Under the pieces are notes generated by a model. That model searched no databases, was not told the DNA's origin, and was given only the letters and a program-made list of their open reading frames with translations. The position numbers and the translations under genes are program-made. From Alphaproteobacteria bacterium (GTDB lineage Bacteria; Pseudomonadota; Alphaproteobacteria; JABAAW01), in contig JABACB010000002.1 of NCBI GenBank assembly GCA_014237925.1, forward strand, positions 62,028 to 124,817: a stretch of 62,790 bases of DNA, read 5' to 3'. Positions 1 through 62,790 of the stretch are shown piece after piece. Each line of letters begins with the position of its first letter. The stretch's first letter is position 1.

Positions 1-90
1 GCCAACACTCGAAAAAAACAGGTGGAAAGAAACCTTGACAGAAACCTTGACGGCGATCTTCTCGCCGCGCAAACGAACGACGCAAAATAG
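1..90 (+). CDS. 3' tail of an upstream gene, probably cytochrome c oxidase subunit II (partial)
   Basis: Frame 1 is open to TAG at 88-90 (ANTRKKQVERNLDRNLDGDLLAAQTNDAK*). Identity rests only on its position before coxA. Confidence 0.3.
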   Translation, partial: ANTRKKQVERNLDRNLDGDLLAAQTNDAK

Positions 91-116
91 AGCGCAAAAT
101 AGAGCGCAAAATAAAG
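81..116. repeat. 12-bp tandem repeat x3 (CGCAAAATAGAG) containing the upstream stop codon
   Basis: Read directly: 81-92, 93-104, 105-116. Confidence 0.9.
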
Positions 117-135
117 CATAGGAGTAGAGAGTAGA

Positions 136-1779
136 ATGGCAAGCATCACCATGAACGGAAAGAAAGGAACGAAGGCTTCGGGTAAGAAAGCCTCCGCTTC
201 TGCAGAGCATCGCCCCTACGGTATCGGACGCTGGCTTTTCTCGACGAACCACAAGGATATCGGAACGATGTATTTGGTCTTCGCCATCATGGCGGGATTG
301 ATCGGCGGTGGTATCTCTTTTCTCATGCGCTTGGAGCTGCAACAGCCCGGCGTGCAATACTTCCTCGGTGCCGGCGATCCCGACGGACACATGTGGAATG
401 TGTTCATCACCGCGCACGGCTTGATCATGGTCTTTTTCACTGTCATGCCCGCCTTGATCGGAGGGTTCGGCAATTGGTTCGTCCCCCTCATGATCGGCGC
501 GCCCGACATGGCTTTCCCGCGCATGAACAACATCAGTTTTTGGCTGCTCGTTCCCGCCTTTCTGCTGTTGCTGCTTTCTCTTTTTGTAGGCGGCGCAGGC
601 ACGGGTTGGACGCTCTATCCCCCCCTGTCTGGTACGCTCGGACATTCGAATCCTTCCGTGGATCTCGCCATCGTCGCCATGCACTTGGCGGGGATCTCCT
701 CCATTCTCGGCGCCATCAACTTCATCGTCACCATCTTCAACATGCGCGCGCCAGGCATGACGCTTCGTGTTCTGCCCCTCTTCGCATGGGGCCTGCTGAT
801 AACAGCTTTCCTGCTCATTATGGTCATGCCCGTCTTCGGCGGCGCGATCACGATGCTGCTCGCCGATCGCAACTTTGCGACAGCCTTCTTCGTGCCTGAG
901 GGCGGCGGAGACCCGCTTCTGTTTCAACACCTGTTTTGGTTTTTCGGACACCCCGAAGTCTACATCATGATCCTGCCCGCCTTCGGCATCATCAGCCATA
1001 TCGTCTCGACCTTCTCGCGCAAGCCCATCTTTGGTTATCTCGGCATGGTCTCTGCCATGGTCGCCATCGGATTCTTGGGATGCATCGTTTGGGCGCACCA
1101 TATGTTCACCGTCGGCATGGGATTTTTTCTCAAGCTCTACTTCAGCGTCGGAACGATGATCATCGCCGTGCCGACGGGCATCAAGATTTTCAGCTGGCTC
1201 GCCACCATGTGGGGCGGATCGATCCGATTCTCCGTGCCGATGTTGTGGGCGCTCGGCTTCATCGGTCTCTTCACCATCGGCGGCGTGACGGGGGTCGTCC
1301 TTGCGCTCGGAGGCGTCGATGTGCAGCTGCACGACACCTACTATGTCGTCGGACACTTCCACTATGTTCTCAGCCTTGGCTCGGTGTTCGCCGTCTTCGG
1401 CGGCTTCTACTATTGGTTTACCAAGATGAGCGGCTGCGTCATTCCTGAGTGGGCAGGCAAGCTGCATTTTTGGACAACCTTCCTCGGCGTGAACATAGCC
1501 TTCTTCCCGATGCACTTCTTGGGACTGGCGGGCATGCCGCGCCGCTACATCGATTACAACGAAGCTTATGCGGGATGGAACGCGGTCGCTTCCTACGGCA
1601 GCTATCTTTCTGCCACCTCCACATTGTTCTTCGTGACGACCGTTGTCGTCGCTCTGTTGCGCGGCAAGCGGAAGGTCGCCGACAATTATTGGGGAGCGGG
1701 CGCGACCACGCTGGAGTGGACGGTCTCGACACCGCCGCCTTTCCACAGCTTTTCGACGCCGCCGCGCATTTCGCGCTGA
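136..1779 (+). CDS. coxA: Cytochrome c oxidase subunit I (aa3 type)
   Basis: [23 protein letters not shown] and HFHYV heme/CuB ligand motifs; AGGAG upstream. Confidence 0.98.
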
Positions 1780-1784
1780 CCCGA

Positions 1785-2912: not shown

Positions 2913-3571
2913 TCCCAAGCTTTGTGTTTGGCATTGTACTGGAAGTTGTGACGACAAGATTCGGCAAGCGAGCGAGGGGTGAGGGCGAGCGGAAAAGGCT
3001 GGGTTTCCGCAACCGTCGTCTTGCACGAAATCTCGTTTTTTTTGGCGTTTTCATGCTGGCGTTGAGCTTTGCTTCTGTTCCGCTGTACGATCTTTTTTGT
3101 CGCACGACGGGCTTCGGCGGCAAGACGCAGCAAAGCAGTTTGCAGGAGCTGCTTGGGTTGGCAAAGCGAGAAGCGGCGCAGACGATCAATGTACGCTTCG
3201 ACGGCAATGTCAATGGTCTCGACTGGCAATTCGCGCCCTCGCAGAGAGAGATGGAAGTTGCTTTCGGCGAGCTGTACGAAACTTTCTACACGGCGGAAAA
3301 TCTCTCCTCGCGTGCGCTTGCGGGTGTTGCCACCTACAATGTCACGCCTGCGAAGGCGGGCGCGTATTTTCACAAGGTCGAGTGTTTCTGCTTTGTCGAA
3401 CAGACCTTGCTGCCGAAAGAGAAGGTTCGGATGAAGGTGGTGTTTTTCCTCGATCCCGCGCTTCGCGACCACAAGGAATGGGATACCTTCGATACGGTCA
3501 CGCTTTCATACAGCTTTTTTCCGCAAACTCTTGACGATGAGGCTCTTGACGATGAGGTTGTTGACGATTAG
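2909..3571 (+). CDS. ctaG: Cytochrome c oxidase copper chaperone CtaG/Cox11
   Basis: ASVPLYDLFCRTTGFGG, YNVTP and YFHKVECFCF motifs. Confidence 0.96.
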   Translation: MIPSFVFGIVLEVVTTRFGKRARGEGERKRLGFRNRRLARNLVFFGVFMLALSFASVPLYDLFCRTTGFGGKTQQSSLQELLGLAKREAAQTINVRFDGNVNGLDWQFAPSQREMEVAFGELYETFYTAENLSSRALAGVATYNVTPAKAGAYFHKVECFCFVEQTLLPKEKVRMKVVFFLDPALRDHKEWDTFDTVTLSYSFFPQTLDDEALDDEVVDD

Positions 3572-3643
3572 GAATGGCTTTTGGATGCGCTTTTCGCGTA
3601 GAATCCTCGATAGGATGGAACGCTTTTCATAGGATGGGATGTC

Positions 3644-4465: not shown

Positions 4466-4509
4466 AACCACGCAGACAGAACGCGGAGGACTAGCGCTTT
4501 TGTGGAGGG

Positions 4510-5274
4510 CTAGCGCTTTTGTGCGTTGCTCTTGCTGGTTCTTGTTCTTCGGTCTATTCTTTTGCTCGCGTCCTTGCGGACGAAAAGCATGCCTGTTTCG
4601 CGCATGAAGTCGCGTCTCATCGAGCTGCGTTCTCTCAGAAGTCGCGTGTTTGTCTTGTCGAAGGCGAAGTCGTATTTTTTGAAAACTCCGATCCAATAGG
4701 CTTGATCGCGGCAGTTGACATGGTGGAAGCCCAGCTGCCCAGGAGGAGCGGCGGTGCATACAACCCTTTTTGCCAAGCGAAAGGCAGACATGTAAAGGGG
4801 TTGGTGTCGCTCTTCGACATGTTCGAGAAACTCGACCGACCAGCAGAGGTCGAATTCTCTGGCGCAAGAGAACTTTCCCTTCGTGAAGTCGTGCAAGAAG
4901 AAAAAGGGTTCGGAAAATTTCAGCGTGTGGTCGCCGTCGACACCGAAAGCCTCGATTTCGAGGCGGCGAGCAATGCGCACCTGCTTGCCGGGACCGCAAC
5001 CCACATCGAGCATGGATTCAACGCCCAAGGTTTCTTTCAGAAAAACTAACGCTCCCTTGTCGACATTCGTAAAGCCGAAGTGTCCGCCCAAGTGAGCCGC
5101 CAGTCGCCCTTGCGCGATGGCTTCCGAGTGTCTGTCGAACTCACGAGAGAAGAAATCGCTCACGACGCTGACGACGCGGCGCAACGGCAAGAAAAGCCAA
5201 AACAGAAGCCCTTTGCCGGAGGGAGATGTTTTCGACGAAGAGGACTTTTTGCTCCAGACCCACAAAAAATTCAT
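4510..5274 (-). CDS. Class I SAM-dependent methyltransferase, substrate unknown
   Basis: MLDVGCGPG motif I, GVDGD, FDLCWSVEFLEHVEE, GFHHVNC..YW. Start at 5274 or 5340. Confidence 0.8.
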   Translation of the reverse strand: MNFLWVWSKKSSSSKTSPSGKGLLFWLFLPLRRVVSVVSDFFSREFDRHSEAIAQGRLAAHLGGHFGFTNVDKGALVFLKETLGVESMLDVGCGPGKQVRIARRLEIEAFGVDGDHTLKFSEPFFFLHDFTKGKFSCAREFDLCWSVEFLEHVEERHQPLYMSAFRLAKRVVCTAAPPGQLGFHHVNCRDQAYWIGVFKKYDFAFDKTNTRLLRERSSMRRDFMRETGMLFVRKDASKRIDRRTRTSKSNAQKR

Positions 5275-5416
5275 GATACCGCCGGATTTCAACACGATGC
5301 GGTTATAGACGAAACGAATAAAAGCTGTGTAAAGCACCAATCGAACCCTTTTTGTGGTCAGCAGAAATTTCGCTTATGCTAGCATGAAGGCAGGTTGAAC
5401 AAATTTTTTCTCCAAG

Positions 5417-6337: not shown

Positions 6338-6389
6338 AGGAAGGGGGATTTTTATAGCGGGGCAGGAGATAACGGAGAGATAACGGAGA

Positions 6390-6507: not shown

Positions 6508-7068
6508 TCAAGGCAGGCAACGCTCGATCCACACATCGTAGATCGGATGATCCATCGCGCTCAAGGAGGGATATTGTGCGTACATCCAGCCTTTAAACAA
6601 GATGCCTTCTTCGCGCTCCGAGATCGACAAGAGTGCGGCGGAATCCTCAAAGTGCGGATGGAGGATGCGCGCGCAAGAAACCAGGCGAATCGAGAGCGTC
6701 TCGAAGGTCAGACTACGCCCTACAGGAGCGCGCAGCTTCTTTGCCTGCCCTGAGCGTTTGTTCAGTCCGATCAGAAATGCGCTCGACGATTCTTTAATGC
6801 GTCGCTCGACATCGAACGACGCTGCGTTGTCTTCGTCGCTTGACTCTTGTCCTGACGCGAGGCGAGGGAGGGTGATGGTAGCGAGGAAGGCAACGAGGAA
6901 GGCAGCGAGAAAGGCAACGAGGAAGACAAAAGGAATCGCGCAAGGAATCGCTATACCATTCCCTTGAGCGAGCGTGCGTTCTCTTCCCGCCTGTCTGTTG
7001 GGTTGTCTTTTGCGCGAAGTTTGTCTGCGTTGTGCAGGCAGTCTTTGTTGCGCGCGCGGAAGCGTCAT
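6508..7068 (-). CDS. DUF2155-family exported protein (true start probably downstream of 7068)
   Basis: LFKGWMYAQYPSLSAMDHPIYDVWIERC C-terminus; usual position after mlaD. Confidence 0.8.
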   Translation of the reverse strand: MTLPRAQQRLPAQRRQTSRKRQPNRQAGRERTLAQGNGIAIPCAIPFVFLVAFLAAFLVAFLATITLPRLASGQESSDEDNAASFDVERRIKESSSAFLIGLNKRSGQAKKLRAPVGRSLTFETLSIRLVSCARILHPHFEDSAALLSISEREEGILFKGWMYAQYPSLSAMDHPIYDVWIERCLP

Positions 7069-8053: not shown

Positions 8054-8102
8054 AAGGCGGAAACAGAGGTTTGCGTTAGGGGCTGGCGTTAGGGGTTTGG
8101 CG

Positions 8103-8456
8103 TTAAGGGGAGGAGGGGGGAGACCAGGCTTGGTAGGGTTTGGGGGGTTGGTGTCTTTTGGGAGAGACGGCTTGGGGGGTTCCCGTGGGATTGGGGTTAT
8201 GGGGTTTTTGCCAGGCGTGTCGGAGGCGGGGGGCAGAGGATTGGTTGGGGGGGGTCTTGGTGGTGTGATGAATCCAGGCGTGCCAGGCGGCGGGGATGGC
8301 GCTGGCATCTTCGTTTTTTTTGTTGTAGACGACCCATCGGCGGGGGTGGCGGGGATTTTTTGGGGATTTTTCTTCAAAGTAGCGGTTGTTCAGAGAGTCG
8401 CGTCCGACGGGGCGACCGTGCAGGAGGGTTTGGAGAAGGATTGCGGCGGTAGGCAT
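8103..8456 (-). CDS. NADH:ubiquinone oxidoreductase subunit NDUFA12 family protein
   Basis: GRDSLNNRYF, RRWVVY, ASAIPAAWHAWIHHT, WQKPHNPNPTGT, YQAWSP. Confidence 0.92.
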   Translation of the reverse strand: MPTAAILLQTLLHGRPVGRDSLNNRYFEEKSPKNPRHPRRWVVYNKKNEDASAIPAAWHAWIHHTTKTPPNQSSAPRLRHAWQKPHNPNPTGTPQAVSPKRHQPPKPYQAWSPPSSP

Positions 8457-8678: not shown

Positions 8679-11600
8679 TTGAAAATCCCCCGCCACTACA
8701 CGCGCGCAGGCGAAAGCCCCTACGCCCGCATCCCCTTCCACCGCGTCACCGCCTCTCTCCGCTCCGCCACAGGCGACCTCGTCTTCGAACAACACAAAGT
8801 CGAAGTGCCAAAAAAATGGTCGCAAACCGCAACCGACATCCTCGCGCAAAAATACTTCCGCAGAAAAGGCATCCCGCATTTCCTCAAACGCATCCCAGAG
8901 AAAGACATCCCCCGCTTCGCACAACGCTCCGCCCCAGACACACAAAAACTGCAAACCCTCCCCGACGAACAACGATACACAGGAGAAACGAGCGCCAAAC
9001 AAGTCTTCTCCCGCCTCGCCGGAACCTGGACATATTGGGGAGCGCGCAACGGATACTTCGATTCCGACGAAGACGCTCAAGCTTTCTGCGACGAGATGCA
9101 ATTCATGCTGGCTTGTCAGATCGCCTCGCCTAACTCGCCGCAATGGTTCAATACAGGGCTATTCTGGGCATACGGCATCGAAGGACCGCCGCAAGGACAC
9201 TGGTACATCGACGAACAGACGAAAACCCCCGCCCTCGCTCAAACAGCCTACGAACGCCCGCAACCCCACGCCTGCTTCATCCAGTCGGTCAAAGACGACC
9301 TTGTCGGCGAAAGCGGCATCATGGATCTGTGGGTGCGCGAAGCGCGGCTTTTCAAGTACGGATCGGGAACAGGTAGCAACTTCTCCGATCTGCGCGGCGA
9401 AAACGAACCCTTGTCTGGCGGCGGATACTCGTCAGGACTCATGTCGTTTCTCAAGATCGGCGACCGCGCCGCAGGTGCGATCAAATCGGGCGGAACAACC
9501 CGCCGCGCCGCCAAGATGGTCGTCGTCGATATCGATCACCCCGACATCGAAGAGTTCATCGATTGGAAAGTACAAGAAGAACAAAAAGTCGCCTCGCTCG
9601 TCGTCGGAGCTCAACGTTGCCAGCAACACCTCGACAATGTGCTGGACGCAGCGCACAGCGGCGACATCCCGAAAAAACAACGGCACTTTGAAGCAACGAA
9701 CCCCCTGCTCGCCACAGCTCTTTCGGCTGCCCGCAAAGACCGCGTTCCCGAATCGATCCTCGTCAAAGTCCTGCAGAAAGCCCGCCAAGGCGAACGCCGC
9801 ATTCCCTTCTCAACCTTCGATACAGACTGGCAGGGCAACGCCTATCTCACCGTCTCGGGACAAAACGCCAACAACAGCGTTCGCGTGAGCGAACGCTTCC
9901 TCCAAGCCGTCGAGAACGACAAACCCTGGCAGCTGACCCGACGCACCGACGGCAAAACACACAAAACCCTCGCCGCACGAACGCTGTGGAAAAAAATCGC
10001 CGACGCCGCTTGGGCAAGCGCAGACCCAGGCATCCAGTTCGATACCACCATCAACGAATGGCACACCTGCCCGAACTCAGGACGCATCAACGCATCCAAT
10101 CCTTGCTCCGAATACATGTTTCTCGACGATACGGCTTGCAACCTCGCCTCCCTCAACCTCTTGAAATTCTGCACCGACAAAGGATTCCTCACCGATGCCT
10201 TCGCACACGCAACACGCCTGTGGACATGCACGCTGGAAATATCGGTCGCCATGGCGCAGTTCCCCTCGCAAGCCATCGCACGCAACTCCTACGACTTTCG
10301 AACGCTCGGACTCGGATTCGCCAACTTGGGCGGAGCTCTCATGAGCTTCGGCGTTCCCTACGACAGCACCGAAGGCAGAAGCTTTTGCGCCGCCGTCAGC
10401 TCGCTCATGAGCGGAACAGCCTACGAGACAAGCGCAGAAATGGCGCGCGAACTCGGCGTTTTTGCGCGATTCGAAGAAAACAGAGAGCCCATGCTGCGCG
10501 TCATGCGAAACCACCGCCGCGCCGCGCACGGAGAGAAACAAGGCTACGAAGGGTTGAGCCGTCCTCCCGTCGCTTTCGAAAGCTTATCGTGCCGCGACAA
10601 CGTGCTCGCCGCCGCTGCGCAAAAAGTTTGGGATCGCGTTCTCGAGAAAGGCGAGCAGCACGGTTTTCGCAACGCCCAAGTCAGCGTGATCGCACCGACA
10701 GGCACGATCGGTATCGTCATGGATTGTGCAACAACGGGAATCGAACCCGATTTCGCGCTCGTCAAAATGAAAAAACTCGCCGGCGGAGGAACGCTCAAGA
10801 TCGTCAATCCCACCCTCTCCGCAGCTCTGCAATCGCTCGGATACGACGAAGAAAGCACGCGCGCCATCGAACAAGCCGTTGCAGGCAGCGGCAAGCTCTC
10901 TTCGAACGAAAAAGGCGTGTCGCCAACAAAACCGTCGCGCGCAAAACCGTCGCGCGCAAAGCTGTCGCAGGAAAAACTGGAGCATGCAGGGCTTTCGAAA
11001 GAAGCCGTCAAAGCCGTCGAGCAAGCCTTGAAAAACGCCTTCCACATTCGCAACGCCTTCACGCCGCACACGCTGGGCGCGAAAGACTTCCAACGCCTTG
11101 TGGCGCGCAACGGCGATGTACTGGCGGCGCTCGGGCTTGACGCGCAAGAGATCGCGGACGCCAACACCGAGATTTGCGGAAGGCTCACCGTCGAAGGAGC
11201 GCCCTTGCTGAAAGACGAACATCTCGCCGTCTTCGACTGCGCAACGCCCTGCGGCGTCGAAGGGAAACGCAGCCTCTCCTGCGAAAGCCACCTTCGCATG
11301 ATGGCAGCAGCCCAACCCTTTGTATCGGGCGCTATCTCGAAGACCGTCAACATGCCGTACCACGCCACGCTCGAAGACTGCCAACACGCTTTCGAAACCT
11401 CGTGGAAGCTGGGGCTCAAAGCCAACGCGCTCTACCGCGACGGCTCGAAGCTTTCGCAGCCCATGACAACTTCTTCGCTCGGCGAAAGGGAAGCAGAGCC
11501 CGTAGCCGAGACGCAGGCGCAGATCCACAACCTCGCCGAGAAGCTCGCGCTCAACCTCTTCGAGCGTTACAAGAGGGCGCTGGAGGAAGAGCGGCAAGGA

Positions 11601-12338
11601 AGCAAAACGCCGCCGCGTGCACGCGGCGCACGCGATCGTCTGCCCGCGCGTCGCAAGAGCTACACGCAGAAAGCCGTCGTCGGAGATCACAAGGTCTATC
11701 TGCACACGGGCGAATACGAGGACGGATCGCTGGGAGAAATCTTCATCGACATGCACAAGGAAGGTGCCGCCTTTCGCTCTATGATGAACAACTTCGCCAT
11801 CGCCGTTTCTATCGGCTTGCAGTACGGTGTGCCGCTGCGGGAGTTCGTCGACGCCTTCACCTTCACGCGCTTCGAGCCAAGCGGCATCGTGCGCGAGAAC
11901 GCTTCGATCCGCCACGCCACCTCCATCCTCGACTACATCTTCCGCGAGCTCGCCATCAGCTACTTGGGACGCGACGACTTGGGACACATCTTGCTGCCGG
12001 ACGGCGACTTCACAGGACTCGGCAAGGGCAAGGACGAGGGACGTCTCAGCGAGGAGACAAGGGCAGCCATCGACCACCTGACCAAACTCACCAGCAGCGG
12101 CTATGTACGCCGCGAACTCACGGCACGACGCAATGGAAACGGTAATGGTAATGGCAACGGCAACGGTAATGGCAATGGCAGTGGTGAGGGCAACAGCGCA
12201 GAGGGCGTGATGTTGCAGGCAAAAACGATGGACGAAGGAATCGGCGATTCCTGCGACTACTGCGGGCATATCACCCTTGTGCGTAGCGGCTCATGCTACG
12301 CTTGCACAACCTGCGGGCAGACGACGGGCTGCAGCTAG
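8679..12338 (+). CDS. nrdJ: Class II (adenosylcobalamin-dependent) ribonucleotide reductase
   Basis: [42 protein letters not shown] and a C-terminal CxxC..CxxC-GCS. TTG start. Confidence 0.97.
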
Positions 12339-12347
12339 AGGTTGCAG

Positions 12348-13142
12348 CTAGAGCTTGGCGGAGGGGAGAGGGGGGACGCGCTCGTTTGATTCGGCGCGAG
12401 AGAAATAGTGCGCGACGAAGGGCAATGTGATCTTGCGTTGGTGCGCAAGGCTCAGGGAATCGAGCTCTTCGGCGATGGCGTGGTGTGCGCGAAAGCTGCG
12501 CTCGATACGACGGTGCACATAGGCAATTACGCGCGCATCCACTTCCAGCTGGCGCGTGCGAAAGATGCTCGCCAAAAGACGCGCGCTGTCGTCGTCGCTT
12601 GGATCTCCGATGCGGAGGACGGCAACCGCGCGCATGCGCGAGCGTAGATCCGCTAAGGAGAATCGCCATCGGCTCGGCTCGCTCCGCGCCGTGATCAACA
12701 GAGAACCCTTCGTGGCGTGCTTAACCTCGTTGTAGAGGGCGTAGAGCTTTCGCTCCAAGCTCAGTGCCATGCCTTGGGCTGGATCCTCGTCGGCGGAAAA
12801 ATCGAGCCACAAGGGTTTGTCCGGCAAAGACAAATCCTTGGACAAGTCCTGGACGCTTTGCAGCAAGGAGGGCGAAAGCGCGCGCGCACCGTTGCGTGCG
12901 CGCCATATTTCGCCCAAGTGCGACTTGCCACATTTGGCAGGTCCGCACAAGGCTTCGATGCGCGGCATGCCGTGCGCGCACGAAGATGGTCGAAGGATTT
13001 GCTCGCAGGGTCGTGCGTGATGCCATGCGAGCAAGGCATCCAACGCCTCGCCGTTGGCTTGCAGACGCAAGAAATGTTTTTCTTCAAATCCCTCGTTGCG
13101 CGTCTCAGGCAGGGGGAGGCTTTGTTGCTCGGCTTGTGCCAC
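12348..13142 (-). CDS. hdaA: DnaA regulatory inactivator Hda/HdaA
   Basis: N-terminal clamp-binding QQSLPL, GPAKCGKSHL Walker A, DLRSRM; follows the AI-2E gene as in other alphaproteobacteria. Confidence 0.88.
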   Translation of the reverse strand: MAQAEQQSLPLPETRNEGFEEKHFLRLQANGEALDALLAWHHARPCEQILRPSSCAHGMPRIEALCGPAKCGKSHLGEIWRARNGARALSPSLLQSVQDLSKDLSLPDKPLWLDFSADEDPAQGMALSLERKLYALYNEVKHATKGSLLITARSEPSRWRFSLADLRSRMRAVAVLRIGDPSDDDSARLLASIFRTRQLEVDARVIAYVHRRIERSFRAHHAIAEELDSLSLAHQRKITLPFVAHYFSRAESNERVPPLPSAKL

Positions 13143-15694: not shown

Positions 15695-15992
15695 TTAGAG
15701 GCAAGAAGATAGGCAAGCGGAGTGCGCGTAAGCGCACAACTCTCGAAGGGGTATGCGCGAAGAGCGCAGTCTCGGACGATAAAGCGCGTTTTGTAGAAAT
15801 GCGCAACCAGCCCAGCAACGCAGCAAAATCTTGCGTTTTCGTACTATTGTCGACATTCTCTCGAACAGAAGGCTTGAAAACAGAAGGCTTGAAAAGAAAC
15901 GAGGTAGCAAAAAGACAGCAAATAGTGCTAAAAACAATAAGAGGCTTGCTGAAAGCAGGCTAAAGAAGTTGCGGATCACCTTTGTTGTTCTT

Positions 15993-18437: not shown

Positions 18438-18474
18438 TCAAGCGCGACACTTCGTCTCACGCAACAAGCTGCAT

Positions 18475-19328: not shown

Positions 19329-19341
19329 TTTCGTGACTCGC

Positions 19342-25560: not shown

Positions 25561-25580
25561 GCAAGAAAAGAACGCGTCCG

Positions 25581-26198: not shown

Positions 26199-26220
26199 GC
26201 GACAAGTCTCAACGCAAGAA

Positions 26221-48923: not shown

Positions 48924-49011
48924 TATCAAGTCCTTTTTGTTTGGGTTTGATGTTGGGATTGGGGCTGACACTCCAAAGGAGTTGCGAATTCTCGCATGAA
49001 ATTCTCTTTTA

Positions 49012-49120
49012 TAACGATGGAAACGCAAGATAGCAAGTCTCGTGCGTGTTTGTTGCGCGAGCGCGTGCTATCCAAAAAGCACGAGCGCGAGCGCAACATA
49101 TACGCCGTGTGGCAATTGAC
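49012..49120. repeat. Direct repeat copy 2 (~109 bp)
   Basis: See copy 1. Contains GATAGCA/TGCTATC and CTCGTGC/GCACGAG inverted pairs. Confidence 0.93.
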
Positions 49121-49129: not shown

Positions 49130-49436
49130 GCGCGTTTCTGCGAAACGCGCCTGGAGCAGGAAGAGGCTGCGCGCTTGCGCGCAGTTTTTTGCGGGAAAAC
49201 TTCGTCCCCCCTCAGCCCCTCCGCGTGCGCTAGCGCACAGTTTTTTTGCGGGGGAACTTCGTCCCCCCACACCCCCCCGCGTGCGCTAGCGCACGCGACG
49301 CGCGACCGCCTTTTTGTCGCCCAAAGTCCCGTTCCTTGTCTTCTTCCTTGTCCTCCCCCCCGCGCGCGCTGACGCACGCGACGCGCGACCCGCCTTTTTG
49401 TCGCCCAAAGTCCCGTTCCTTGTCTTCTTCCTTGTC
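49130..49436. repeat. Hairpin array: 9-bp stem, 56-bp unit x2, ~83-bp unit x2, 20-bp perfect palindrome
   Basis: GCGCGTTTC-TGC-GAAACGCGC (49130-49150); GGGGGA-ACTTCG-TCCCCC; CGCGTGCGCTAGCGCACGCG (49278-49297). Confidence 0.92.
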
Positions 49437-50108: not shown

Positions 50109-50198
50109 CCCACGCTTGTGCGACACAGACCGACGAAAGTCAAGCAGATGAAGGTCAAGCAGATGAAGATCGAGCAGATGAAGATCGAGCAGGAGGAG

Positions 50199-52568
50199 AT
50201 GAAACACGCTGAGACGAGAGCCGAGATGACAACGCCTTGTTCGCCGCCTTGTTCGCCGACCGCAGAGCTGCTCGTCCTTTCGCCACGCCTCGACCAGCTC
50301 TTCTCCTACGCCTGCCCGCAAGAGATAGTTTGCTCTCGCGTTCTCGAAGAAGGCGCTCTGTTTCGCGTTCCGTTCGGCAGCAAAGAGGTTCTCGCCGTCG
50401 TGTGGCGCGTGGTCGAAAGCTCCCTGCCGCCCGCGCGTCGCCTGAAATCGCTGACGGCAGCGATGCGCCAAGAGCTGCCGCCCTTACAAGCAGACCTCCG
50501 CGCCTTCATCGATCGATTCGCCGCCTACACCATGACCCCGCGCGGACGCGTGTTGAAAAGCGTCTTCGCATCGGCGCTCAACGCAGGGCAACCGCCGCGC
50601 AAGAAAGAGAGACGCGCTTTTCGTATCACCGCGAAAGGCGTAGAAGAACATCTGCAAACAAAAACGACAAGCAAAACAACACAAAAAACCCGCCTGCTCG
50701 CCATGCTGGCGCAGAATTCGATGCGCCCGCATCAAGATTTTTTGCCAAAAGACTTGTCGCACGAAGCTTTGTCGCACGAAGCTTCGTCGCGCGAAGATTT
50801 GCTGAGCGAAGGCATCTCGGCTGCCGTCTTGCGTCGCTGTCGCGCGTTGGAGCTGGTCGAAGAAATTTCGCTTATATCCCCCCCCGTACCACCTCCTACG
50901 CGATCGGCTTCTCTCGCAACGCCCTCGCCCTCGCCGTTTTGCGTCTTGCCGCGCGAATCTCCGCTCGAAAAAGAACAGCAGGAGGCAGCCTATGAGCTCT
51001 GCTCGCTTTGCCAAGAAGGCAAGTTTACAACAGTCCTGCTCGACGGCGAAACAGGCTCCGGCAAAACAGAGGTGTACTTCGAAGCGGTCGCAACCTGTCT
51101 GCAAGCAGGCAAACAAGTGCTGCTTATGCTGCCGGAGATTGCTCTCTCGGTGCGTTTCGCCGAACGTTTTCACAAACGATTCGGAACGGAAGCGCTGCTC
51201 TGCCACTCCGCCCTGTCCGCCCGCGCGCGGCGCGCGGCGTGGAACGAGATCGCCTGCGGCAAGGCACGCGCCGTCTTGGGAGCGCGTAGCGCACTCTTCC
51301 TCCCATTTTGCAACTTGGGACTCGTCGTCGTCGACGAAGAACACGACCACGCCTACAAACAAGAAGAAGGCATCGTCTATCACGCGCGCGATATGGCGGT
51401 GTTGCGCGCGCAAAAAGCGGGCTGCCTCGTCGTGCTCGTGAGCGCGACCCCGTCGCTCGAAAGCTGGCACAACGCCGAGTGCGGCAAGTATCGTCGTCTG
51501 GTGTTGCCGCATCGCTTCGGCAGAGCGACTCTGCCCAAGGTCACCCTCGTAGACTTGCGCAAAGAAGCCAGCGCCGCGAAGACAGGCGAACCCCTCCTGA
51601 CACCGTCCCTCTGCACCCGCATCGAACAGACGCTCTCGCGCAAGGAGCAAGTGCTGATCTTTCTCAACCGCCGAGGCTATGCACCGCTGCTGTTATGCAA
51701 TCGCTGTGGCGCGCGCCTCTCCTGCCGCTTCTGCAACGCCCTCTTGGTCGAACATCGCGCGTTTGTGCGCGTTGTCTGCCACCACTGCGACTTTTCGATG
51801 CCGACACCGCAAATCTGCCCCTCCTGCAATGCGGAGGGGTCTCTGAAGGCGTTCGGCGTGGGTGTCGAGCGGCTTGCGGAGGCGTTGCAAAAACTTTTTC
51901 CGAAAGCTCGCCTGCAACTCCTCAGCTCGGATACGAAGGATCCGCAAGCGGTCGTGCGTGCTTTCGAAGAAGGTCGCTGCAACCTTGTGGTGGGAACGCA
52001 AATGCTGGCGAAAGGCTACCACTTCCCTCATCTGACTTTGGTCGGCATCGTCAATGCCGACTTGGGACTTTCGGGCGGCGACCCGCGCGCCTTCGAACGT
52101 TGCTACCAGCTGCTACACCAAGTTGCCGGACGAGCGGGGCGGGGCGCGAAGAAGGGCGAGGTTGTCGTTCAAACGACGGAGCCGCACTCGACGGCGTTGC
52201 GCGCCTTGCAGACCTTCGACCGCGACAGCTTTTTGAAAAGCGAGGTGCTTGCGCGCTCCGACACAAGGCACAACAGCTTTTGGCCGCCCTTTGCCCGTCT
52301 CGCCGCCGTCGTTGTGAGTTCGAAGGAGAAACGTCGTCTCGATATTTTTGCGCAGCGCTTGTACGAGGCTTTCCCCGTATCGTCTAGGGTCGAATGTTTC
52401 GGTCCTGCCGCACCCCCTCTGTCGCCGCTGCGCGGACGTCATCGTCTTCGTTTCTTGTTGCGCACGCGCACCCAACCCCTGCAACCCCTGCTCGCGCGTT
52501 GGCTTGCGTGCAAGATACCCGAAGACGTGCGCCTCAAGATCGATATCGATCCCTACAGCTTTCTTTGA
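50199..52568 (+). CDS. priA: Primosomal protein N'
   Basis: [30 protein letters not shown], Zn-binding Cys clusters, QVAGRAGR; SD AGGAGGAG. Confidence 0.96.
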
Positions 52569-53181: not shown

Positions 53182-55791
53182 TCAGTGAGGAATGCGTTCT
53201 TCCAACGGTTGTTTCTTCTTGGGTCTCGAAGCAGGCTCGTCCGCAGGTTCGTCCAAGGGTTGTAGTGCACCCTTCTTTTCGGAAGGAATGGCTTCCAAGG
53301 CGCTCTCCAAGCGCGGCCGCGGCGGCGGCAGAGGCGTCAGCTTGCGCGTCAGCGCCAAATCCAACACTTGGTCGACCGATTCGACAGGGACGATCGTCAA
53401 GCCCTCCTTCACATTTTCGGGAATCTCCTCCAAGTCCTTCTTGTTCTCCTCAGGAATAATCACCGTCTTGATGTTGCCGCGAAGGGCGGCCAGCATCTTC
53501 TCTTTCAGCCCCCCGATCGGCAAAACTCTGCCGCGCAAGGTGATCTCGCCCGTCATCGCAACCGTGCGATCGACCGGAATGCCCGTCAGCACCGAGACCA
53601 ACGCCGTCGCAATCGCTATGCCCGCCGAAGGACCATCCTTCGGCGTCGCCCCTTCGGGGACATGCACATGCAGATCGATCTTTTCGAAAACATCGGGCGT
53701 AATTCCGAAATGCCACGACCTGCTCTTGATAAAGTTTTCGGCGGCGTGAATCGATTCCTGCATCGTGTCGCCCAGCTTGCCAGTACGCCGAATGCGCCCC
53801 TTGCCGGGCACGGTCACGGTTTCGATGGTCAACAGCTCGCCGCCGACCTCCGTCCACGCCAGCCCTGTTGCGATTCCCGTCAAATCTTGGCTTTCCACCT
53901 CGCCGAAGCGATACTTCCGCACCCCGAGAAAATCGGGCAAGTTTTGCGCCTCGATCGTGATCGGAGGCTCCTCCTTCAGAAGAATCTTGCGGATAGACTT
54001 GCGCAGCATGCGCGCGATCGATCGCTCCAAGTTGCGCGCACCCGCCTCGCGCGTGTAGTAGCGAATCGTGTCGCGTAGCGCGTCATCCTTCAGGTCGATC
54101 TCCCCTTCCCTGACACCACACTGCTCAAAATTCTTCGGCAACAGATGACGTTTCGCTATCTGAATCTTCTCGTCTTCCGTGTAGCCCGGCAACCGCACGA
54201 TATCCATGCGATCGATCAACGCTTGCGGCATGTTCAAAGAGTTCGCCGTCGTGATGAACATGCATTCGGAGAGATCGTAATCCACCTCGAGGTAGTGGTC
54301 GTTGAACCCGTTGTTTTGTTCAGGATCGAGCACTTCGAGCAGCGCGGAAGTAGGGTCGCCGCGCCAGTCGTTGCCGATCTTGTCGATTTCGTCGAGCAAG
54401 AAGAAGGGGTCGCTGACCTTGGCTTTCTTCATGCCTTGCAGGATCTTGCCCGGCATAGCGCCGACATAGGTACGGCGATGTCCCCTAATCTCAGCCTCGT
54501 CGCGGATGCCGCCCAGCGAGATGCGAACGAAGACGCGTCCGATCGCGCGCGCGATCGATTTGCCTAACGAGGTTTTGCCGACCCCCGGAGGTCCCACCAA
54601 GCACAGAATCGGTCCCTTGAAAATTTTCACCCTGCTCTGCACCGCAAGATAGTCGAGAATGCGCTCCTTCACCTCTTCCAAGCCGTAGTGGTCTTCGTTG
54701 AGAATCGTCTTGCAAGTTTCCATGTCCGTGTTGATCTTAGAGCGTTTCTTCCACGGCAGGGATACCAGCCAGTCGAGATAGTTCCGCACCACCGTCGCCT
54801 CTGCGGACAAGGGGCTCATCTGCCGCAGTTTTTTCACCTCCGAGGTCGCCTTCTCTTTCGCTTCCTTGCTCATGCGCAAAGAGCGGATCTTCTCCTCCAT
54901 CTCCGAAAGCTCGTCGCCGCCCTTCTCCCCTTCCCCCAGCTCTTTTTGAATCGCCTTGATCTGCTCGTTCAAATAGTACTCGCGCTGACTCTTCTCGACC
55001 TGCTTCTTCACGCGAGAACGAATCTTCCGCTCCACGCGCAGCATGCCGATTTCGTCCTCGATGATCTTCAAGATCAGCTCGAAACGTTTCGGCAGCGATG
55101 CCAAAGACAAAAGATTTTGCTTCTTCTCCAGCCGCACCGCGAGATGCTGCGACATCAAATCGCACACCTCCGCCGCATCGTCCATCTTCGATAGCGTCTG
55201 CATCAGGTCTTCGGGAATACGACGATTGGTCTGACAATACTTTTCGAATTGTCCCAAGGTCGCGCGACACAAGTTCGCCAAGTCCTTGTCGTCGCGGTTC
55301 GTGTCCTCCATCGCCTCGTAGGCGACGGAGAGAAATGTCTCCTCGTTGCGTTCGACATGCAAGCGCACGCGCCTTCTGCCTTCGACAAGAATCTTCACCG
55401 TGCCGTCGGGCAAATGCAGCATCTGCAATACGACGCTCTCGACACCGATGTTGTAGAGGTCTTTGGCTTGCGGACGGTCTTGCGACGCGTCCTTTTGGGT
55501 TACCAACAGAATGGTGCCATGCTGCTTGCGCGCTTGCTCTAGCGCGCGCACCGAGCGTTCGCGTCCCACCGACAAGGGTACGACCATGCGAGGGAAAACG
55601 ACGATGTCGCGGAGCGGTAGCGCGGCGCAACGGGGCAACGCCGACCTTGCCTTTCCTCCTAGCTTTCCTGTAGCCGACCCCGCTGACGATCCTGCAACCG
55701 ATCCCACCCCGTCGCCGTCTTCGTCCTCGATCTTCGCCGCTTGCTCGTCTGTCGCAGGGGGCTTGTCGCTGTTTTTTGTGCGTTTGAACAT
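53182..55791 (-). CDS. lon: Lon protease
   Basis: [34 protein letters not shown]. Confidence 0.98.
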
Positions 55792-55895
55792 GAGTGAACG
55801 ATAGCCTCTTTTCGGTCGTTTGTCTCTTTGCTTCTTTCTTCGCTTCTTTCTTCGCTTCTTTCTTCGTTCGTTTCGGTTTTTCTCTGGCAACGATG

Positions 55896-57855: not shown

Positions 57856-57946
57856 GGCAAGGTCAAGACGAGCGCACTCTAAAGAACAAAAGGCGAGGAG
57901 AACAAAAGGCGAGGAACAAAAAGCGAGAGCCAAAGAAAAGACGAGA

Positions 57947-59404: not shown

Positions 59405-59522
59405 AAGTCCAATCTCCTTGTTGCTTCGCCTTGTCGTTTCTTGGTCGTTTCTTGGTCGCTTCTTGCAAAGCGTCCAAATCGAGGGTTCCGTTCTTGTCCT
59501 CAAGGTGCAGTGCACGAGCGGA

Positions 59523-59677: not shown

Positions 59678-60064
59678 TCACGATTTCGTGATGTCCGAGG
59701 TCGCAATTTCCGACTTCGTGATGTCCGACCTCGTGATTTCATAGAGGTTCGAAAACTGCTCGATCGAAAGAATCTTCGGACCCTCCCAATCCTCGACAGG
59801 ACTGTAAGGGTGGCGAAAGCGCACTTCGAAGCGTACATGCGTGATTCCTCCGTTGTCGTGAAAGCCCAAAATCCTTGCTGTCTCCACCGTCGAGTCCTTG
59901 CGCACCCGTCGAAAGCTGCTGCCGGCTCTCAGATAGTAAGGCTCCACAGGAGTCCGTGTCTTTTCGTCGGGCTGGAACAGAGTCTGTTTGCGATTCGAAG
60001 ACACTTTTTGTTCAAGCCAGTCCTTCAGCACGCGCGTGTGTTTCTTGAGAGGAAGCGGAGTCAT
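59678..60064 (-). CDS. Hypothetical protein (128 aa)
   Basis: Globular beta-rich core YLRAGSSFRRVRKDSTVETARILG..HVRFEV..EGPKILS; (SDITK)-type repeat tail. Confidence 0.65.
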   Translation of the reverse strand: MTPLPLKKHTRVLKDWLEQKVSSNRKQTLFQPDEKTRTPVEPYYLRAGSSFRRVRKDSTVETARILGFHDNGGITHVRFEVRFRHPYSPVEDWEGPKILSIEQFSNLYEITRSDITKSEIATSDITKS

Positions 60065-60270
60065 AGAATTGCCTTGGGAGTTGACTTGGAAGATGCCTTG
60101 GAGATGGTAGGCGGATGTCCGCCGAGCAGGAGGGATTCTTGCTTTGTCTCTATCAAAAAAAGTGCCAAGATGGGAAAACAGCGGACAAGCGGCAAGGCAA
60201 GTAGCAAGGCAAGCAGCAAGGCGAGCAGTAAGGCGAGCAAGCAGACAAGCGACCACAACAGGAGAGAACG

Positions 60271-60615
60271 ATGACCTTTGTCGTGACCGAAAAATGCATC
60301 AAGTGTAAGTATCAAGATTGCGTCGAGGTTTGTCCTGTCGATTGTTTCTACGAGGGAGCAACGATGCTGGTGATCCACCCTGACGAGTGCATCGATTGCG
60401 GCGTTTGCGAGCCGGAGTGTCCGATCGGGGCGATCCTTCCCGACACAGAAAAGGACGCGGAGGCGTGGCTGGGCGTCAATCGCGAGTACAGCGAAAAGTG
60501 GCCGAACATCACGCGCAAGGGCGAGGTGCCGAGCGACGCCAAAGAGTGGGAGGAGGTTGCCGACAAGTTCAAAAATCACTTCTCCGACAAGCCCGGAAAA
60601 GGCGACGAAGAGTGA
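60271..60615 (+). CDS. fdxA: 7Fe ferredoxin
   Basis: [18 protein letters not shown] and [12 protein letters not shown]; SD AGGAGAG. Confidence 0.97.
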
Positions 60616-61628
60616 GGCTTCTTCGGCGAGCGCAGAAGATCGAGCTTGCAGAAAAACGGACAAGCAGGGAAGGAAGCGGGGGAGGAAGCGGGGGAGGAAG
60701 CGGGAGTCTGCGCAGAAGCGCGGACAAGCTTACGCAGAGACTTGCGCCAAAACCAAAGGACGAGGTTGTAGGAAAGAACTATCGTTTTTACGCTCGATCC
60801 TGCGAGCGCATGCCTGAGTGCGCGGACGGCTCGATCGCCTTGACGATCACCTCGCCGCCGTACTGGAATGCGATCGACTACGACTTGCACGCCGCCCAAG
60901 ACGACTCTTCGCGCGAGGCTAATTCGGTCTGGTACCGAGAGCGCGCCTACAGCGGATTCGGCGATACGCTGGAGGCGTATCTCGACAAGATTGGCGTGGT
61001 GTTCACCGAGGTGTTGCGTGCCACCAAGGCGGGCGGGTTTTGTGCGATTGTCGCAGGCACGCTTCTTCACGAGCGCAAGCACATTCCGACGCCGATGTTA
61101 ATCACTGAACGCATGCTGCGCTTGGGTTGGGAGTTTCATCAAGACATCGTTTGGAACAAGGTGACGGGCGGGGTGACTCGCGCGGGCTGCTTCATCCAGC
61201 GTCCCAGGGCGGGCTATTACTATCCAAACATCATGTGCGAGTACATTTTGGTCTTTCGCAAAGAGGGGACGCATTGGCGAGACAAGAAAGACGCGCTTGC
61301 GATCGACGATGTGTTCAAGCGCGATATCGCAAACAACATTTGGCACATTGCGCCTGTTCCTCCTCGGACGATCGATCATCCTTGTCCCTACCCTGAAGAG
61401 CTGGTGCGTCGTCTGGTGTTGCTCTATTCGTGTGAGGGCGACGAGGTGTTGGATCCGTTCTTGGGTAGCGGACAGACGGCACTAGCAGCGAGGCGTTGCG
61501 GTCGGTTGTCTGTCGGTTACGACATCGAACCACACTACATTGCTTTGGCGGAGCGGCGAGTGCTGTCTCCTCCTGAGTGTCGCAAGTACCAGCTTCTGCC
61601 TTTTGTCGAGAGGGTTGCGAGCGGATAG
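60612..61628 (+). CDS. DNA methyltransferase, beta class (SPPY, probably m4C)
   Basis: TSPPYW (motif IV) precedes [10 protein letters not shown] (motif I); HPCPYPEEL. In-frame GTG overlaps the fdxA stop (GTGA). Confidence 0.9.
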
Positions 61629-61654
61629 GCAATGAGGGGAGGGAACGAATTTCT

Positions 61655-62790
61655 TCACAAAGCGAGGTTGATGTTGGCGTTTTCCAGCGAGCGTTGAGAA
61701 AAAAGATAGCGTCCGCCCGTCATGAAGCCGAGCGCTCGCCAGTCGAGGCGGTTCAGTTCTTCGCAAATCTCTGCCAAGTTGTGAATCTTCTTTTTGGGGA
61801 AAAGCGCCAAGACCGAGCCGTCGAACGCTTCTGCCGTTGAGATGAAGAAAGGTTTTGTGATGCGTGTCTTGCCGTTGACATAGATTCGCGCGCCCTCGCG
61901 TTCGGGGTATTTTCTGCCCCATTGCCACCAGTTGTTTTCGTCGAATGCTCGTATGCGTCTTTGTAGCAGGGTTTGTTTGTGCGGGAGGAGGGCTCGGCTG
62001 AGCTTGTTGTAGATCATGCGTTTGAGATCGCCTGTGGTTCGCGTTTGCGAGCAGACGAAGTCTTGGTTTCCGTGTGGCGATTCGTAGATGTGGTCTGCTC
62101 CGCTGACGGCGCCCACTTTCACTTCGAAGGCGTCTCCCAGTCTGTGAGCGAGGTGCGCTTTTTTGGGGGAGAAGGTGAGTTGTCCTTCGTGGCAGAGGAA
62201 GGTTCTGCCGTCCGCCATGCGGGGTGAGGTTTTTCCTTTTTGGAAGCGCCATACGGCGCAGTTGGGAGTTGCGTTGTGGAAGAGTTTTGTATCGCCGTAG
62301 TCTTGGAAGTGGGTGATGGTTCCTGTTTTGTGTAGGTATTCATTGAGGTTTTTGGCGCTGGTGGCTTTGGTGAAGTCTCTGGGAGTGATGAAGATGAGTT
62401 CTCCGTTGTCGTTGAGGTGGAGGGTCGCTTTGTAGATGAAGAAGAGGTAGAGGTTCGTTCGGTTGTCGAAAAAGGTTGGAGAGGGGGAGGGTAAGGGAGA
62501 GGATGTTTTTTGGAGGGATTTCAGGAAGGCGGTAATTTTTGTGTGTGTTGTGGGGAGGATATCTTGGAAGCGGACATAGGGTGGATTTCCGATGATGGTA
62601 TCGAACTTTTGGGAGAGGGGATAATCGAAGAAGTCTGTGTTGATATGGTTGATATGGCGTGTGTTGCTGGAGTGATTAAGGGACGGGTCGATTTCTAGGG
62701 CTGTGATGGGGATATTTTGTGCGAGGGGGGAATGGAGGAAGATATTTTTGCCGCTTGCGGGTTCTAGGATTTGTCCGTGGTTGTGTTTGA
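61655..62790 (-). CDS. Amino-DNA methyltransferase, gamma order (NPPY), 5' end beyond the window
   Basis: Hand translation is open from 62788: ILEPASGKNIF..ALEID..TDFFDY..FDTIIGNPPYVRFQDI..NLYLFFI..GELIFITPRDF, continuing into ORF 61655..62218. Confidence 0.88.
   Translation of the reverse strand, partial: KHNHGQILEPASGKNIFLHSPLAQNIPITALEIDPSLNHSSNTRHINHINTDFFDYPLSQKFDTIIGNPPYVRFQDILPTTHTKITAFLKSLQKTSSPLPSPSPTFFDNRTNLYLFFIYKATLHLNDNGELIFITPRDFTKATSAKNLNEYLHKTGTITHFQDYGDTKLFHNATPNCAVWRFQKGKTSPRMADGRTFLCHEGQLTFSPKKAHLAHRLGDAFEVKVGAVSGADHIYESPHGNQDFVCSQTRTTGDLKRMIYNKLSRALLPHKQTLLQRRIRAFDENNWWQWGRKYPEREGARIYVNGKTRITKPFFISTAEAFDGSVLALFPKKKIHNLAEICEELNRLDWRALGFMTGGRYLFSQRSLENANINLAL

Follow-up and report, generated by a model that had tools for sequence, protein, structure and literature searches.

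Why does a stretch of ordinary bacterial DNA carry short tandem repeats along its whole length, with units that are alike in size and unrelated in sequence? The stretch in question, called the window here, comprises 62,790 nucleotides (nt) of an alphaproteobacterial metagenome-assembled genome (MAG) and corresponds to C222:62028-124817 of that assembly, which is 1.97 Mb long in 409 contigs and 86% complete. A sequence-only reading of the window had counted about 40 arrays by eye, with units of 11-15 bp, and had attributed them to a general mutational process under selection that stems from a duplication-prone replication or repair defect. We find that the arrays are real and that the process behind them is local, sequence-independent, and still active, with existing arrays gaining and losing whole units. 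This process is probably an ongoing head-to-tail duplication of ~13 ± 2 nt followed by whole-unit turnover, likely through misalignment of the nascent strand.

In the following, G000 is the window's own genome and G001-G006 represent its genus, in which G003 and G004 are syntenic sister species. L041, L042, L047, L050, and L051 are contigs of near-identical strains from the assemblies of other samples.

Abundance and unit size of the arrays

Arrays were detected with Tandem Repeats Finder (TRF) at score cut-offs of ≥30, ≥40, and ≥50, with overlaps removed. Because a score threshold could mimic a lower size limit, a score-free count of exact periodic runs with two or more copies was added for all periods from 4 to 60. 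The 102 TRF rows of the window reduce to 74, 48, and 38 non-redundant arrays at the three cut-offs. At ≥50 the density is 0.6 arrays/kb and 3.2% of the bases are covered, while three mononucleotide shuffles of the window gave 0-1 arrays at this cut-off and 6-12 at ≥30. All 26 positions listed in the sequence-only reading are tandem arrays by TRF, and the one placed at 19320 is a degenerate 12-nt array at ~19329-19420 in the PurK tail. The whole genome has 1,472 arrays at ≥50 (0.75/kb). The short class, defined by periods of 9-30 without 27, accounts for 1,036 arrays on the main contigs and 3.0% of the DNA. It makes up 9.8% of spacer and 2.3% of coding sequence as called, and touches 485 of our 1,470 home-made gene calls, essential genes included.

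Perfect repeats with units of 11-16 nt number 702 in 1.70 Mb (0.41/kb). The exact-run counts for unit lengths k from 7 to 13 were 199, 82, 144, 27, 51, 298, and 66, and those for k from 14 to 20 were 80, 186, 21, 6, 29, 4, and 0. A triplet-shuffle control gave about zero exact runs for k ≥ 11, and units of 4-6 nt occurred at 1.2-1.5 times the triplet shuffle, that is, near the shuffled expectation. The perfect repeats in spacers, for unit lengths of 10 to 19 nt, numbered 8, 30, 45, 38, 42, 28, 16, 3, 6, and 2. This spectrum is unimodal and roughly symmetric, with a mean of 13.3 and a standard deviation of 1.9 nt. Since the reading frame is irrelevant in spacers, the narrow size window is real. 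The threshold-free count upholds the proposed narrow range, for which 11-16 nt is a better description than 11-15 bp.

The units differ from array to array, as the sequence-only reading had also stated. After rotation and reverse complementation, 692 of the 702 perfect units are distinct, and the pairwise identity of units in the window is 0.533 against a shuffled expectation of 0.524. A dispersed repeat family (REP, MITE, or CRISPR) does not fit; no consensus is common to the loci, the copies are directly adjacent, and Rfam matches in the window are limited to three tRNAs. No peptide motif recurs across loci in the 11-16-nt class, as it would in a structural protein repeat of the RTX type.

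Lineage specificity

The background set consisted of sampled DNA from 31 other alphaproteobacteria, 1.59 Mb in total, treated with identical methods. It contained 15 perfect 11-16-nt repeats (0.009/kb), which makes the excess in G000 44-fold. The TRF density at ≥50 was 0.061/kb in the background, against 0.75/kb in G000. The ratio of periods 11-16 to periods 19-23 among arrays at ≥50 was 759:52 in G000 and 27:25 in the background (p 9e-15). Thus these relatives share neither the density nor the size distribution, and both the rate and the unit length of the excess are specific to the lineage.

Within the genus the density is similar in G002 (0.48 arrays/kb), G003 (0.39), G004 (0.42), G005 (0.49), and G006 (0.44). 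G001, with 0.076 arrays/kb in 172 kb sampled, is at background and is the only sampled member of the genus so low, so it is a natural control for tracing the cause. Outside the genus, G034, which belongs to another family in GTDB, shows the same range of unit sizes at 0.45 arrays/kb. Of the sister-family genomes, two (G007 and G010) have intermediate densities of 0.15-0.25 and two (G008 and G009) have background densities. Perfect arrays make up ~0.55 of the arrays at ≥50 in G000 and 0.14 in G003, a difference that suggests a rate varying over time.

A link with guanine-cytosine (GC) content was considered and rejected. The first repeat-rich genomes had 55-59% GC, yet G005 and G006, at 46-48% GC, carry 0.44-0.49 arrays/kb. 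We also observed that G001 is the only genus member without a match to the MutL C-terminal domain, in a MAG that is 81% complete.

Selection on frame, peptide, and location

The sequence-only reading had placed units of 11, 13, and 14 bp in spacers only and had taken this as selection acting on a general mutational process. The genome-wide counts of perfect repeats agree. Gene interiors hold 180 repeats with 12-nt and 102 with 15-nt units, against 2, 4, 5, and 0 with units of 11, 13, 14, and 16 nt. This is 282 vs 11 in gene interiors and 73 vs 126 in spacers (Fisher p 1e-50), a frame bias of 26:1 within genes. All robust window arrays with units that are not multiples of three (4485, 6366, 8068, 12330, 18473, 25469, 43005, 43032, 57883, and 59433) lie in a spacer or across a stop codon. 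Four weak exceptions (8351, 35037, 38484, and 44769) are located within genes or at gene ends; their TRF scores of 35-42 fall in the range where shuffles also yield arrays. Those at 8351 and 35037 are stretches of ~2 copies, and the sister species have largely the same sequence there. The MatE gene carries the one at 38484 at its 3' end, a stretch that differs in the sister species.

The peptides encoded by the repeats are rich in S, Q, P, K, N, D, and E and poor in L, V, I, F, Y, W, and M. The density is 1.18/kb in spacers and 0.22/kb in gene interiors. Frame preservation, hydrophilic inserted peptides, and spacer enrichment all agree with the claim of selection, and we conclude that a selection filter operates. 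Arrays in genes are strongly purine- or pyrimidine-rich (41% against 14% of background k-mers), those in spacers only mildly (31% against 21%); the purine-rich strand tracks the sense strand of the gene (odds ratio 2.9-13). Contingency loci for phase variation are not indicated, as the coding arrays are multiples of three and lie in housekeeping genes (purK, purE, nrdJ, priA, dnaQ, lon, and ccmB).

Local origin and ongoing change

The window is collinear with G003 and G004 at ~80% nucleotide identity. In three-way alignments, arrays of the window appear as insertions lacking in both G003 and G004, those at 22349, 30761, 43413, and 57883 among them. The sister species have their own arrays elsewhere, and some sites bear an array in each species, unrelated to those of the others. 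Arrays are therefore not kept between species at this distance, and their turnover is faster than ~0.2 substitutions per site.

Changes at shorter distance were read from 11 usable strain contigs of at least 4 other samples, which are 98.6-100% identical to the window and were retrieved through exact copies of four repeat-free window proteins in public assemblies. Copy-number heterogeneity was thus assessed across assembled sequences rather than reads. The alignments cover 67,195 positions with 215 mismatches and 13 sites of whole-unit difference. These sites, with the change in nt, are 6880 (-12), 6930 (+12), 26209 (+12), 30761 (+15), 36882 (-17), 39206 (+12), 41246 (rearranged), 41392 (+11), 43015 (-11), 43413 (-6 and ~-36), 45299 (+15), 57883 (+16), and 60671 (+24). 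The insertions and deletions amount to one, two, or six units, and about one whole-unit change occurs per 17 mismatches. One birth of a duplication can be polarised by G003. The sequence TTCCTAAACGC at 41392-41402 occurs once in the window, has a single related copy in G003, and is a perfect 11-nt tandem duplicate in two strains (L050 and L051), with ≤1 nt of microhomology at its origin. Head-to-tail, locus-specific units and whole-unit strain differences, as expected of slippage-driven variable-number tandem repeats (VNTRs) or minisatellites, are both observed.

The MAG has second-organism fragments among its 409 contigs, and one strain assembly, ERZ26869290, has noisy stretches, so that one of its contigs was left out; an assembly or sequencing artefact may be suspected on these grounds. 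We regard its probability as negligible. Several of the strain events are seen in the BUSC20-1 scaffolds, which are cleaner, or in both sources, the same arrays are found in the independent assemblies of the other samples, the one-contig genome of G003 has the same class of arrays, and selection on frame cannot come from an artefact. One strain difference was discarded in this comparison. An apparent array-bounded deletion in L051 relative to window 42147-43016 is a 100-N scaffold gap (L051:5835-5934); this gap has arrays on both sides, and the arrays evidently break short-read assemblies.

The concentration of arrays in spacers and at gene ends would be expected if they were functional and selected as such, for instance as regulatory sites, contingency loci, or linkers of use to the protein. 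This is scarcely plausible. The units are unrelated to one another, the arrays are not conserved between species of ~80% identity, and the coding arrays, never frame-shifting, lie in housekeeping genes.

Weak selection may also be considered, by which ordinary slippage products would pile up in a small effective population without any mutational process of a special kind. The genomes measure only 1.4-2.3 Mb, a third of our home-made gene calls carry arrays, essential ones included, and in-frame arrays per kb in genes reach about half of the level in spacers. We nevertheless consider this explanation unlikely. The excess is length-specific, and weak selection predicts neither a symmetric spectrum nor a limit to 11-16 nt. 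Purifying selection is effective, as the frame bias indicates, and perfect, hence young, repeats are the ones enriched 44-fold. Whole-unit changes at one per 17 mismatches between near-identical strains also speak against it. The similar-sized congener G001 is at background, and the equally small G008, G009, G040, and G029 are repeat-poor.

Replication and repair genes

The sequence-only reading had proposed a defect in repair or flap processing. Its first part, a general mutational process specific to the lineage, is borne out by the data above, whereas for the defect no listed gene of the usual alphaproteobacterial set was found missing, and the genes that were read look intact. PolA is a 964-aa open reading frame (ORF; 988-aa open frame) in which the FEN (5'-nuclease), proofreading, and polymerase motifs are readable. 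The PolA 5'-nuclease, RecJ, XseA (ExoVII), MutS, MutL, RNase HI, RNase HII, and HolC are present in G000 and the genus; UvrD, PriA, DnaQ, and Hda are also present. The endonuclease motif of MutL and the DHH motifs of RecJ are readable in the translated ORFs. The suggested inventory of polA, rnhA/B, recJ, xseA, and mutS/L therefore does not point to a loss. SbcB and Ku had no match in any of the 13 genomes searched, repeat-poor ones included. Among the genes tested, none is lacking in the repeat-rich genomes yet present in the repeat-poor ones, as a mutator by gene loss would require.

Two candidates were rejected. RecJ scores below the NCBIfam cut-off, but the repeat-poor G001 scores the same and the DHH motifs are present. 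Loss or truncation of HolC (chi) does not correlate with density, as HolC is missing in the repeat-poor G008 and G009 and present in repeat-rich genomes. The HolC match itself is weak in G000 (C99:1519-1791), G003, and G004, with 50-55 bits over the first 81-94 of 135 model positions; in most other sampled alphaproteobacteria it is near full-length with 77-139 bits. Several replication and repair proteins carry arrays themselves, namely MutL (three in the linker), RecJ (three), DnaQ (linker), PriA, PolA (N-terminus), XseA (tail), and UvrD (tail).

Mechanism of duplication

The most likely mechanism, judged from sequence comparison, is misalignment of the nascent strand followed by escape from mismatch repair. 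The nascent strand would misalign, independently of RecA, during replication or repair synthesis, and one unit would loop out. MutS of E. coli handles loops of ~4 nt or fewer. A loop of 11-16 nt would be too large for MutS and may thus become fixed at the next replication round. Mismatch repair looks intact here, with MutS and MutL present, in agreement with this mechanism. Two copies would supply homology for more slippage, so that the sites stay hot and the arrays turn over fast. Selection would then leave units of only 12, 15, 18, and 24 nt in genes, as hydrophilic, disorder-type linkers and tails, and units of all lengths in spacers.

Several observations weigh against this mechanism. A symmetric, ruler-like spectrum is unexpected from plain slippage, since slippage at microhomologies gives a broad or right-skewed one. 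All tested replication and repair genes are present, and no cause was found among them. Most of the apparent two-copy repeats adjoin older shifted or degenerate copies, so the length of the extra match is not the microhomology at birth. The junctions of 113 integer-copy repeats showed a weak G|C preference only, with none in spacers, and the e=0 condition may bias this result. No polarity of divergence along the arrays was found, and neither strand polarity nor a local GC-skew link ties the process to replication. Moreover, the genome-wide split into coding sequence and spacers uses our home-made gene calls, which were checked in the window, where the gene boundaries were compared with Pfam, NCBIfam, and the gene calls of other assemblies.

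The shape of the spectrum leads to a different explanation, in which a length ruler sets the unit. We hold it tentatively possible that the clade, and independently or jointly G034, has a heritable mutator of this kind, a change in discontinuous DNA synthesis (primer hand-off, Pol I patch synthesis, or flap ligation) that would duplicate ~13 ± 2 nt at about one event per 15-30 substitutions. A specific form, which we find somewhat more doubtful, is that a flap or 3' end from Okazaki maturation or Pol I short-patch repair is ligated out of register, so that the unit copies the primer or the patch; its rate would be raised by a lineage-specific change in the coordination of primase, Pol I, ligase, or SSB. 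The narrow, symmetric spacer spectrum and an excess over relatives restricted to 11-16 nt are consistent with a primer- or patch-length ruler, as are the matching size windows of G003, G004, and G034 (a separate lineage) and the polarised birth at 41392. The trait also switches within the genus, with G001 at background, as a single-gene change would, and the DnaQ linker, PriA, PolA N-terminus, and UvrD tail carry arrays.

Other points disagree with such a ruler. The three activities of PolA all have their motifs, RNase HI and HII are present, and an RNA flap would need conversion to DNA before it could be duplicated. No asymmetry of strand or replichore, junction motif, or array polarity was detected. 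RNA primers of E. coli are ~10-12 nt long (about 11) and its excision-repair patch is 12-13 nt. The match of primer length with the mean unit of 13.3 nt uses these E. coli numbers rather than those of this organism and is a numerical coincidence only.

Low microhomology, both at 41392 and in the ~43% of apparently clean two-copy repeats with ≤1 nt of extra match, would also be expected from staggered breaks, in which nicks 11-16 nt apart, made by a nuclease or by a transposase as a target-site duplication without insertion, are filled and rejoined. We consider this very unlikely. The sequence-only reading had mentioned fill-in of such breaks, and its route through nonhomologous end joining is improbable because Ku has no match in the genus, including the one-contig G003 (LigD was not searched). 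There is no junction motif, and most of the two-copy repeats adjoin older degenerate copies. Multi-copy arrays with stepwise gain and loss of units need slippage anyway.

A tie to a strand signature of single-stranded DNA (ssDNA), also proposed earlier, is not supported. In G000 and G003 the purine orientation of arrays tracks the gene sense strand and not the local GC skew computed with the arrays masked. For the same reason, a contig-level correlation with GC skew does not speak for an effect of replication. Sampling of 534 kb from G003 revealed no clear replichore skew. Along the window, GC skew flips on a 1-kb scale at ~8.5, 43.9, 48-49.4, and 60 kb (for example, +0.21/+0.12 at 7-9 kb and -0.13 at 9-10 kb), and array orientation does not track these abrupt flips. 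On contigs C387 (56 kb) and C166 (22 kb), GC skew is unusually high, at +0.157 and +0.104, and nearly all arrays are purine-rich on the plus strand, in ratios of 26:3 and 12:1.

Arrays and genes of the window

The gene content of the window is ordinary alphaproteobacterial housekeeping. It includes cox2-cox1-ctaB-cox11-cox3, mlaD, NDUFA12, nrdJ, hda, purM/K/E/A, ccmA-H, and dapD/E, followed by uvrD, a MatE transporter, dnaQ, rph, rdgB, hemW, fabA/B, xerC, fsa, priA, HU, lon, clpX/P, and tig, as well as two DNA methylases. The closest named relatives of CoxA are Rhodospirillales-like, with 70-74% identity.

The first arrays are in the cox region. A perfect 12-nt array (2.0 copies) at 28-51 lies at the 3' end of the cox2 ORF, and a second (12 nt x 3.1, 81-117) runs across the cox2 stop into the spacer before cox1. 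The C-terminal end of Cox11/CtaG has a 15-nt array of 3.0 copies at 3528-3572, where G003 is 18 nt shorter. Spacer arrays follow at 4485-4523 (19 nt x 2.1), between cox3 and the convergent gene at 4510-5340 on the minus strand; at 6366-6389 (11 nt x 2.2, perfect), between an EamA gene and a tRNA; and at 8068-8109 (13 nt x 3.1), between the MlaD-like and NDUFA12 genes. At 6880-6953, two adjoining 12-nt arrays with units CGAGGAAGGCAA and AAGGAATCGCGC lie within a DUF2155 gene on the minus strand.

The nrdJ gene has an in-frame array at 10927-10968 (15 nt x 2.8) and a further in-frame one of 6/18/24 nt near its C-terminus (12130-12194); between the convergent stops of nrdJ and hda lies a 13-nt array of 2.2 copies (12330-12357). 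The array at 14649-14808 has ~13 copies of 12 nt, in frame, in a minus-strand gene of 452 aa without a family match. This site is a hot spot, as G003 and G004 have long unrelated arrays at the same position with the purine-rich strand opposite.

Among the purine genes, the 5' end of the purM ORF has a perfect 15-nt array (2.1 copies, 15864-15895). The PurK C-terminal tail and stop are formed by the degenerate 12-nt array that opens the region 19329-19459, and a second 12-nt array comes after it at 19432-19459. The ATP-grasp region of PurK has 4.2 copies of 12 nt (20024-20073), a 48-nt insertion that is not in G003 or G004. PurE has 5.1 copies of 15 nt in its C-terminal tail, beyond the AIRC domain (20662-20737). 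Spacers hold the arrays at 18473-18523 (14 nt x 3.6), 21312-21342 (12 nt x 2.6, perfect), and 25469-25561 (13 nt x 7.1, a 78-nt insertion not in G003 or G004). The array at 22349-22393 (12 nt x 3.8), in an AFG1-like ATPase, is inserted relative to G003.

In the second part of the window, the 12-nt array at 26209-26230 (1.9 copies) has one more unit in L042, and the 15-nt array of ccmB at 30761-30805 (3.0 copies) has one more in L041. Two 12-nt arrays at 31422-31453 (2.7 copies) and 31503-31550 (4.0 copies) occupy the 5' end of ccmB and its junction with ccmA, and strain substitutions cluster at these arrays. The C-terminal tail of UvrD is encoded by a pyrimidine-rich array of 9-18 nt (36872-36940) that has 17 nt less in L050. 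The dnaQ gene (Pol III epsilon) has a 12/24-nt array at 39174-39245, which encodes residues ~210-233 and is 12 nt longer in L050. DnaQ itself (38547-39344) is an NCBIfam equivalog match with 245 bits, and the array directly follows the exonuclease domain, in the segment that tethers it to the C-terminal part.

A 12/24-nt array in a zf-CHCC gene (41202-41264) has rearranged units in L050 and L051. A hydrolase gene has a perfect 12-nt array at its 5' end (2.2 copies, 41450-41475) and ~6 copies of 15 nt at its C-terminal end (42179-42280). At 43005-43056, 3.0 copies of 11 nt span the RNase PH stop, with one unit fewer in L050, and are followed by 1.9 copies of 13 nt in the spacer. The 6-nt array of rdgB (8.5 copies, 43413-43463) is shorter by one unit in L050 and by about six in L051, and the 15-nt array at the fabA N-terminus (~3 copies, 45291-45338) is longer by one in L050.

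The start and N-terminus of priA carry 3.5-3.9 copies of 15 nt (50140-50200) and 2.2 copies of 12 nt (50233-50258), both within 50140-50258. Another 15-nt array (3.2 copies, 50754-50801) separates its 3'-DNA-binding and helicase domains. The lon C-terminus has 2.0 copies of 12 nt (53231-53254), where G003 has a different array, and a 12/24-nt array lies at the 5' end or upstream of lon (55816-55874). The spacer between tig and clpP has 3.1 copies of 16 nt (57883-57929), with one more unit in L047. Further arrays are located upstream of tig (11 nt x 3.0, spacer, 59433-59465), at the 3' end of a small minus-strand gene without a family match (15/30 nt, 59681-59740), in a divergent spacer (two 12-nt arrays at 60070-60106 and 60186-60239, within 60070-60239), and upstream of an N6/N4 DNA methylase gene (12 nt x 3.6, 60662-60704; two more units in L047).

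Repeats of other kinds are also found. Among the 1,472 arrays of the genome at ≥50, a separate class of 186 with periods of 27 or 54 nt encodes RTX-like GGxGxD calcium-binding nonapeptides. These arrays are on other contigs, for example, at C122:14458-14769 and C387:41332-41547, and on many contigs of <2 kb; they probably fragment the assembly. In the window, 56- and 84-nt repeats at 49171-49436 and 48474-49028 flank a low-scoring orphan ORF beside xerC. They differ in kind from the 11-16-nt class and are rearranged and multiplied in L047.

The MAG is a mixture. Its main bin has ~57-58% GC and is accompanied by some fragments of low GC or from a second strain. GC fractions of single contigs run from 0.26 to 0.67, and ~150 kb lie in contigs of <50% GC. 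Small contigs totalling ~10 kb match main-bin contigs at 86-94% identity (second organism, about 88%), and a second partial PolA is located on C359.

Significance and comparison with known systems

If the mutator with a length ruler exists, duplication length would for the first time define a natural mutational signature in bacteria, and a ruler that sets the length would offer a natural experiment on duplication by bacterial replication or patch repair. The repeat-poor G001 makes the cause findable by comparison with its congeners. With ~3% of the DNA and a third of our home-made gene calls affected, young inserts are present in purK, purE, nrdJ, priA, dnaQ, mutL, recJ, lon, and ccmB. They mean longer proteins, lower HMM scores, broken short-read assemblies, and ready-made strain markers.

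A literature search returned no paper on this clade or on an 11-16-nt repeat signature. Repeat-rich genomes are known; an excess restricted to 11-16 nt with a symmetric spectrum was not found described. A tree-of-life survey of short tandem repeats (PMC12699852) appears to consider units of up to ~9 nt, with figure regressions for those of 5, 7, 8, and 9 nt, and describes bacteria as, on average, neither enriched nor depleted. Like our analysis, the survey compares the repeat counts of each genome with shuffled genomes. The 11-16-nt class is beyond the range given there, and here the units of 4-6 nt are near the shuffle.

A closer parallel is the small, AT-rich (29% GC) genome of an obligately intracellular alphaproteobacterium, in which Collins and colleagues (2005, PNAS 102:838) reportedly found very many locus-specific tandem arrays. 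In both genomes the arrays are chromosome-wide, differ in copy number between strains, and are attributed to an active slippage-type process rather than a mobile element. According to PMC7343930, "large tandem repeats" in that genome break assemblies. The repeats of that genome are mostly non-coding, whereas here the units are 11-16 nt, a third of the home-made gene calls contain them in frame, and the GC content is 57%.

The VNTR or minisatellite loci used in multilocus VNTR analysis (MLVA) typing of Burkholderia, Yersinia, and Mycobacterium (MIRU) number in the tens per genome and have broad unit sizes. The arrays described here are likewise head-to-tail and locus-specific, change by whole units as in slipped-strand mispairing, and stay in frame when coding. 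Unlike those genomes, there are ~1,000 arrays in 1.7 Mb, and the excess is restricted to 11-16 nt.

Duplication mutators provide a further comparison. The yeast rad27/FEN1 mutants of Tishkoff and colleagues (1997) are said to accumulate duplications of 5-108 bp with flanking direct repeats. Mutants of the E. coli polA 5'-nuclease reportedly act as duplication mutators (Nagata and colleagues, 2002), and tandem repeats are said to be unstable in E. coli deficient in ssDNA exonucleases (Feschenko, Rajman, and Lovett, 2003). The present genome resembles these mutators in having short duplications and repeat expansion as a genome-wide mutational signature. Unlike those mutants, which owe their phenotype to the loss of a nuclease, it has PolA-FEN, RecJ, and ExoVII in apparently intact form, and its length window is much narrower.

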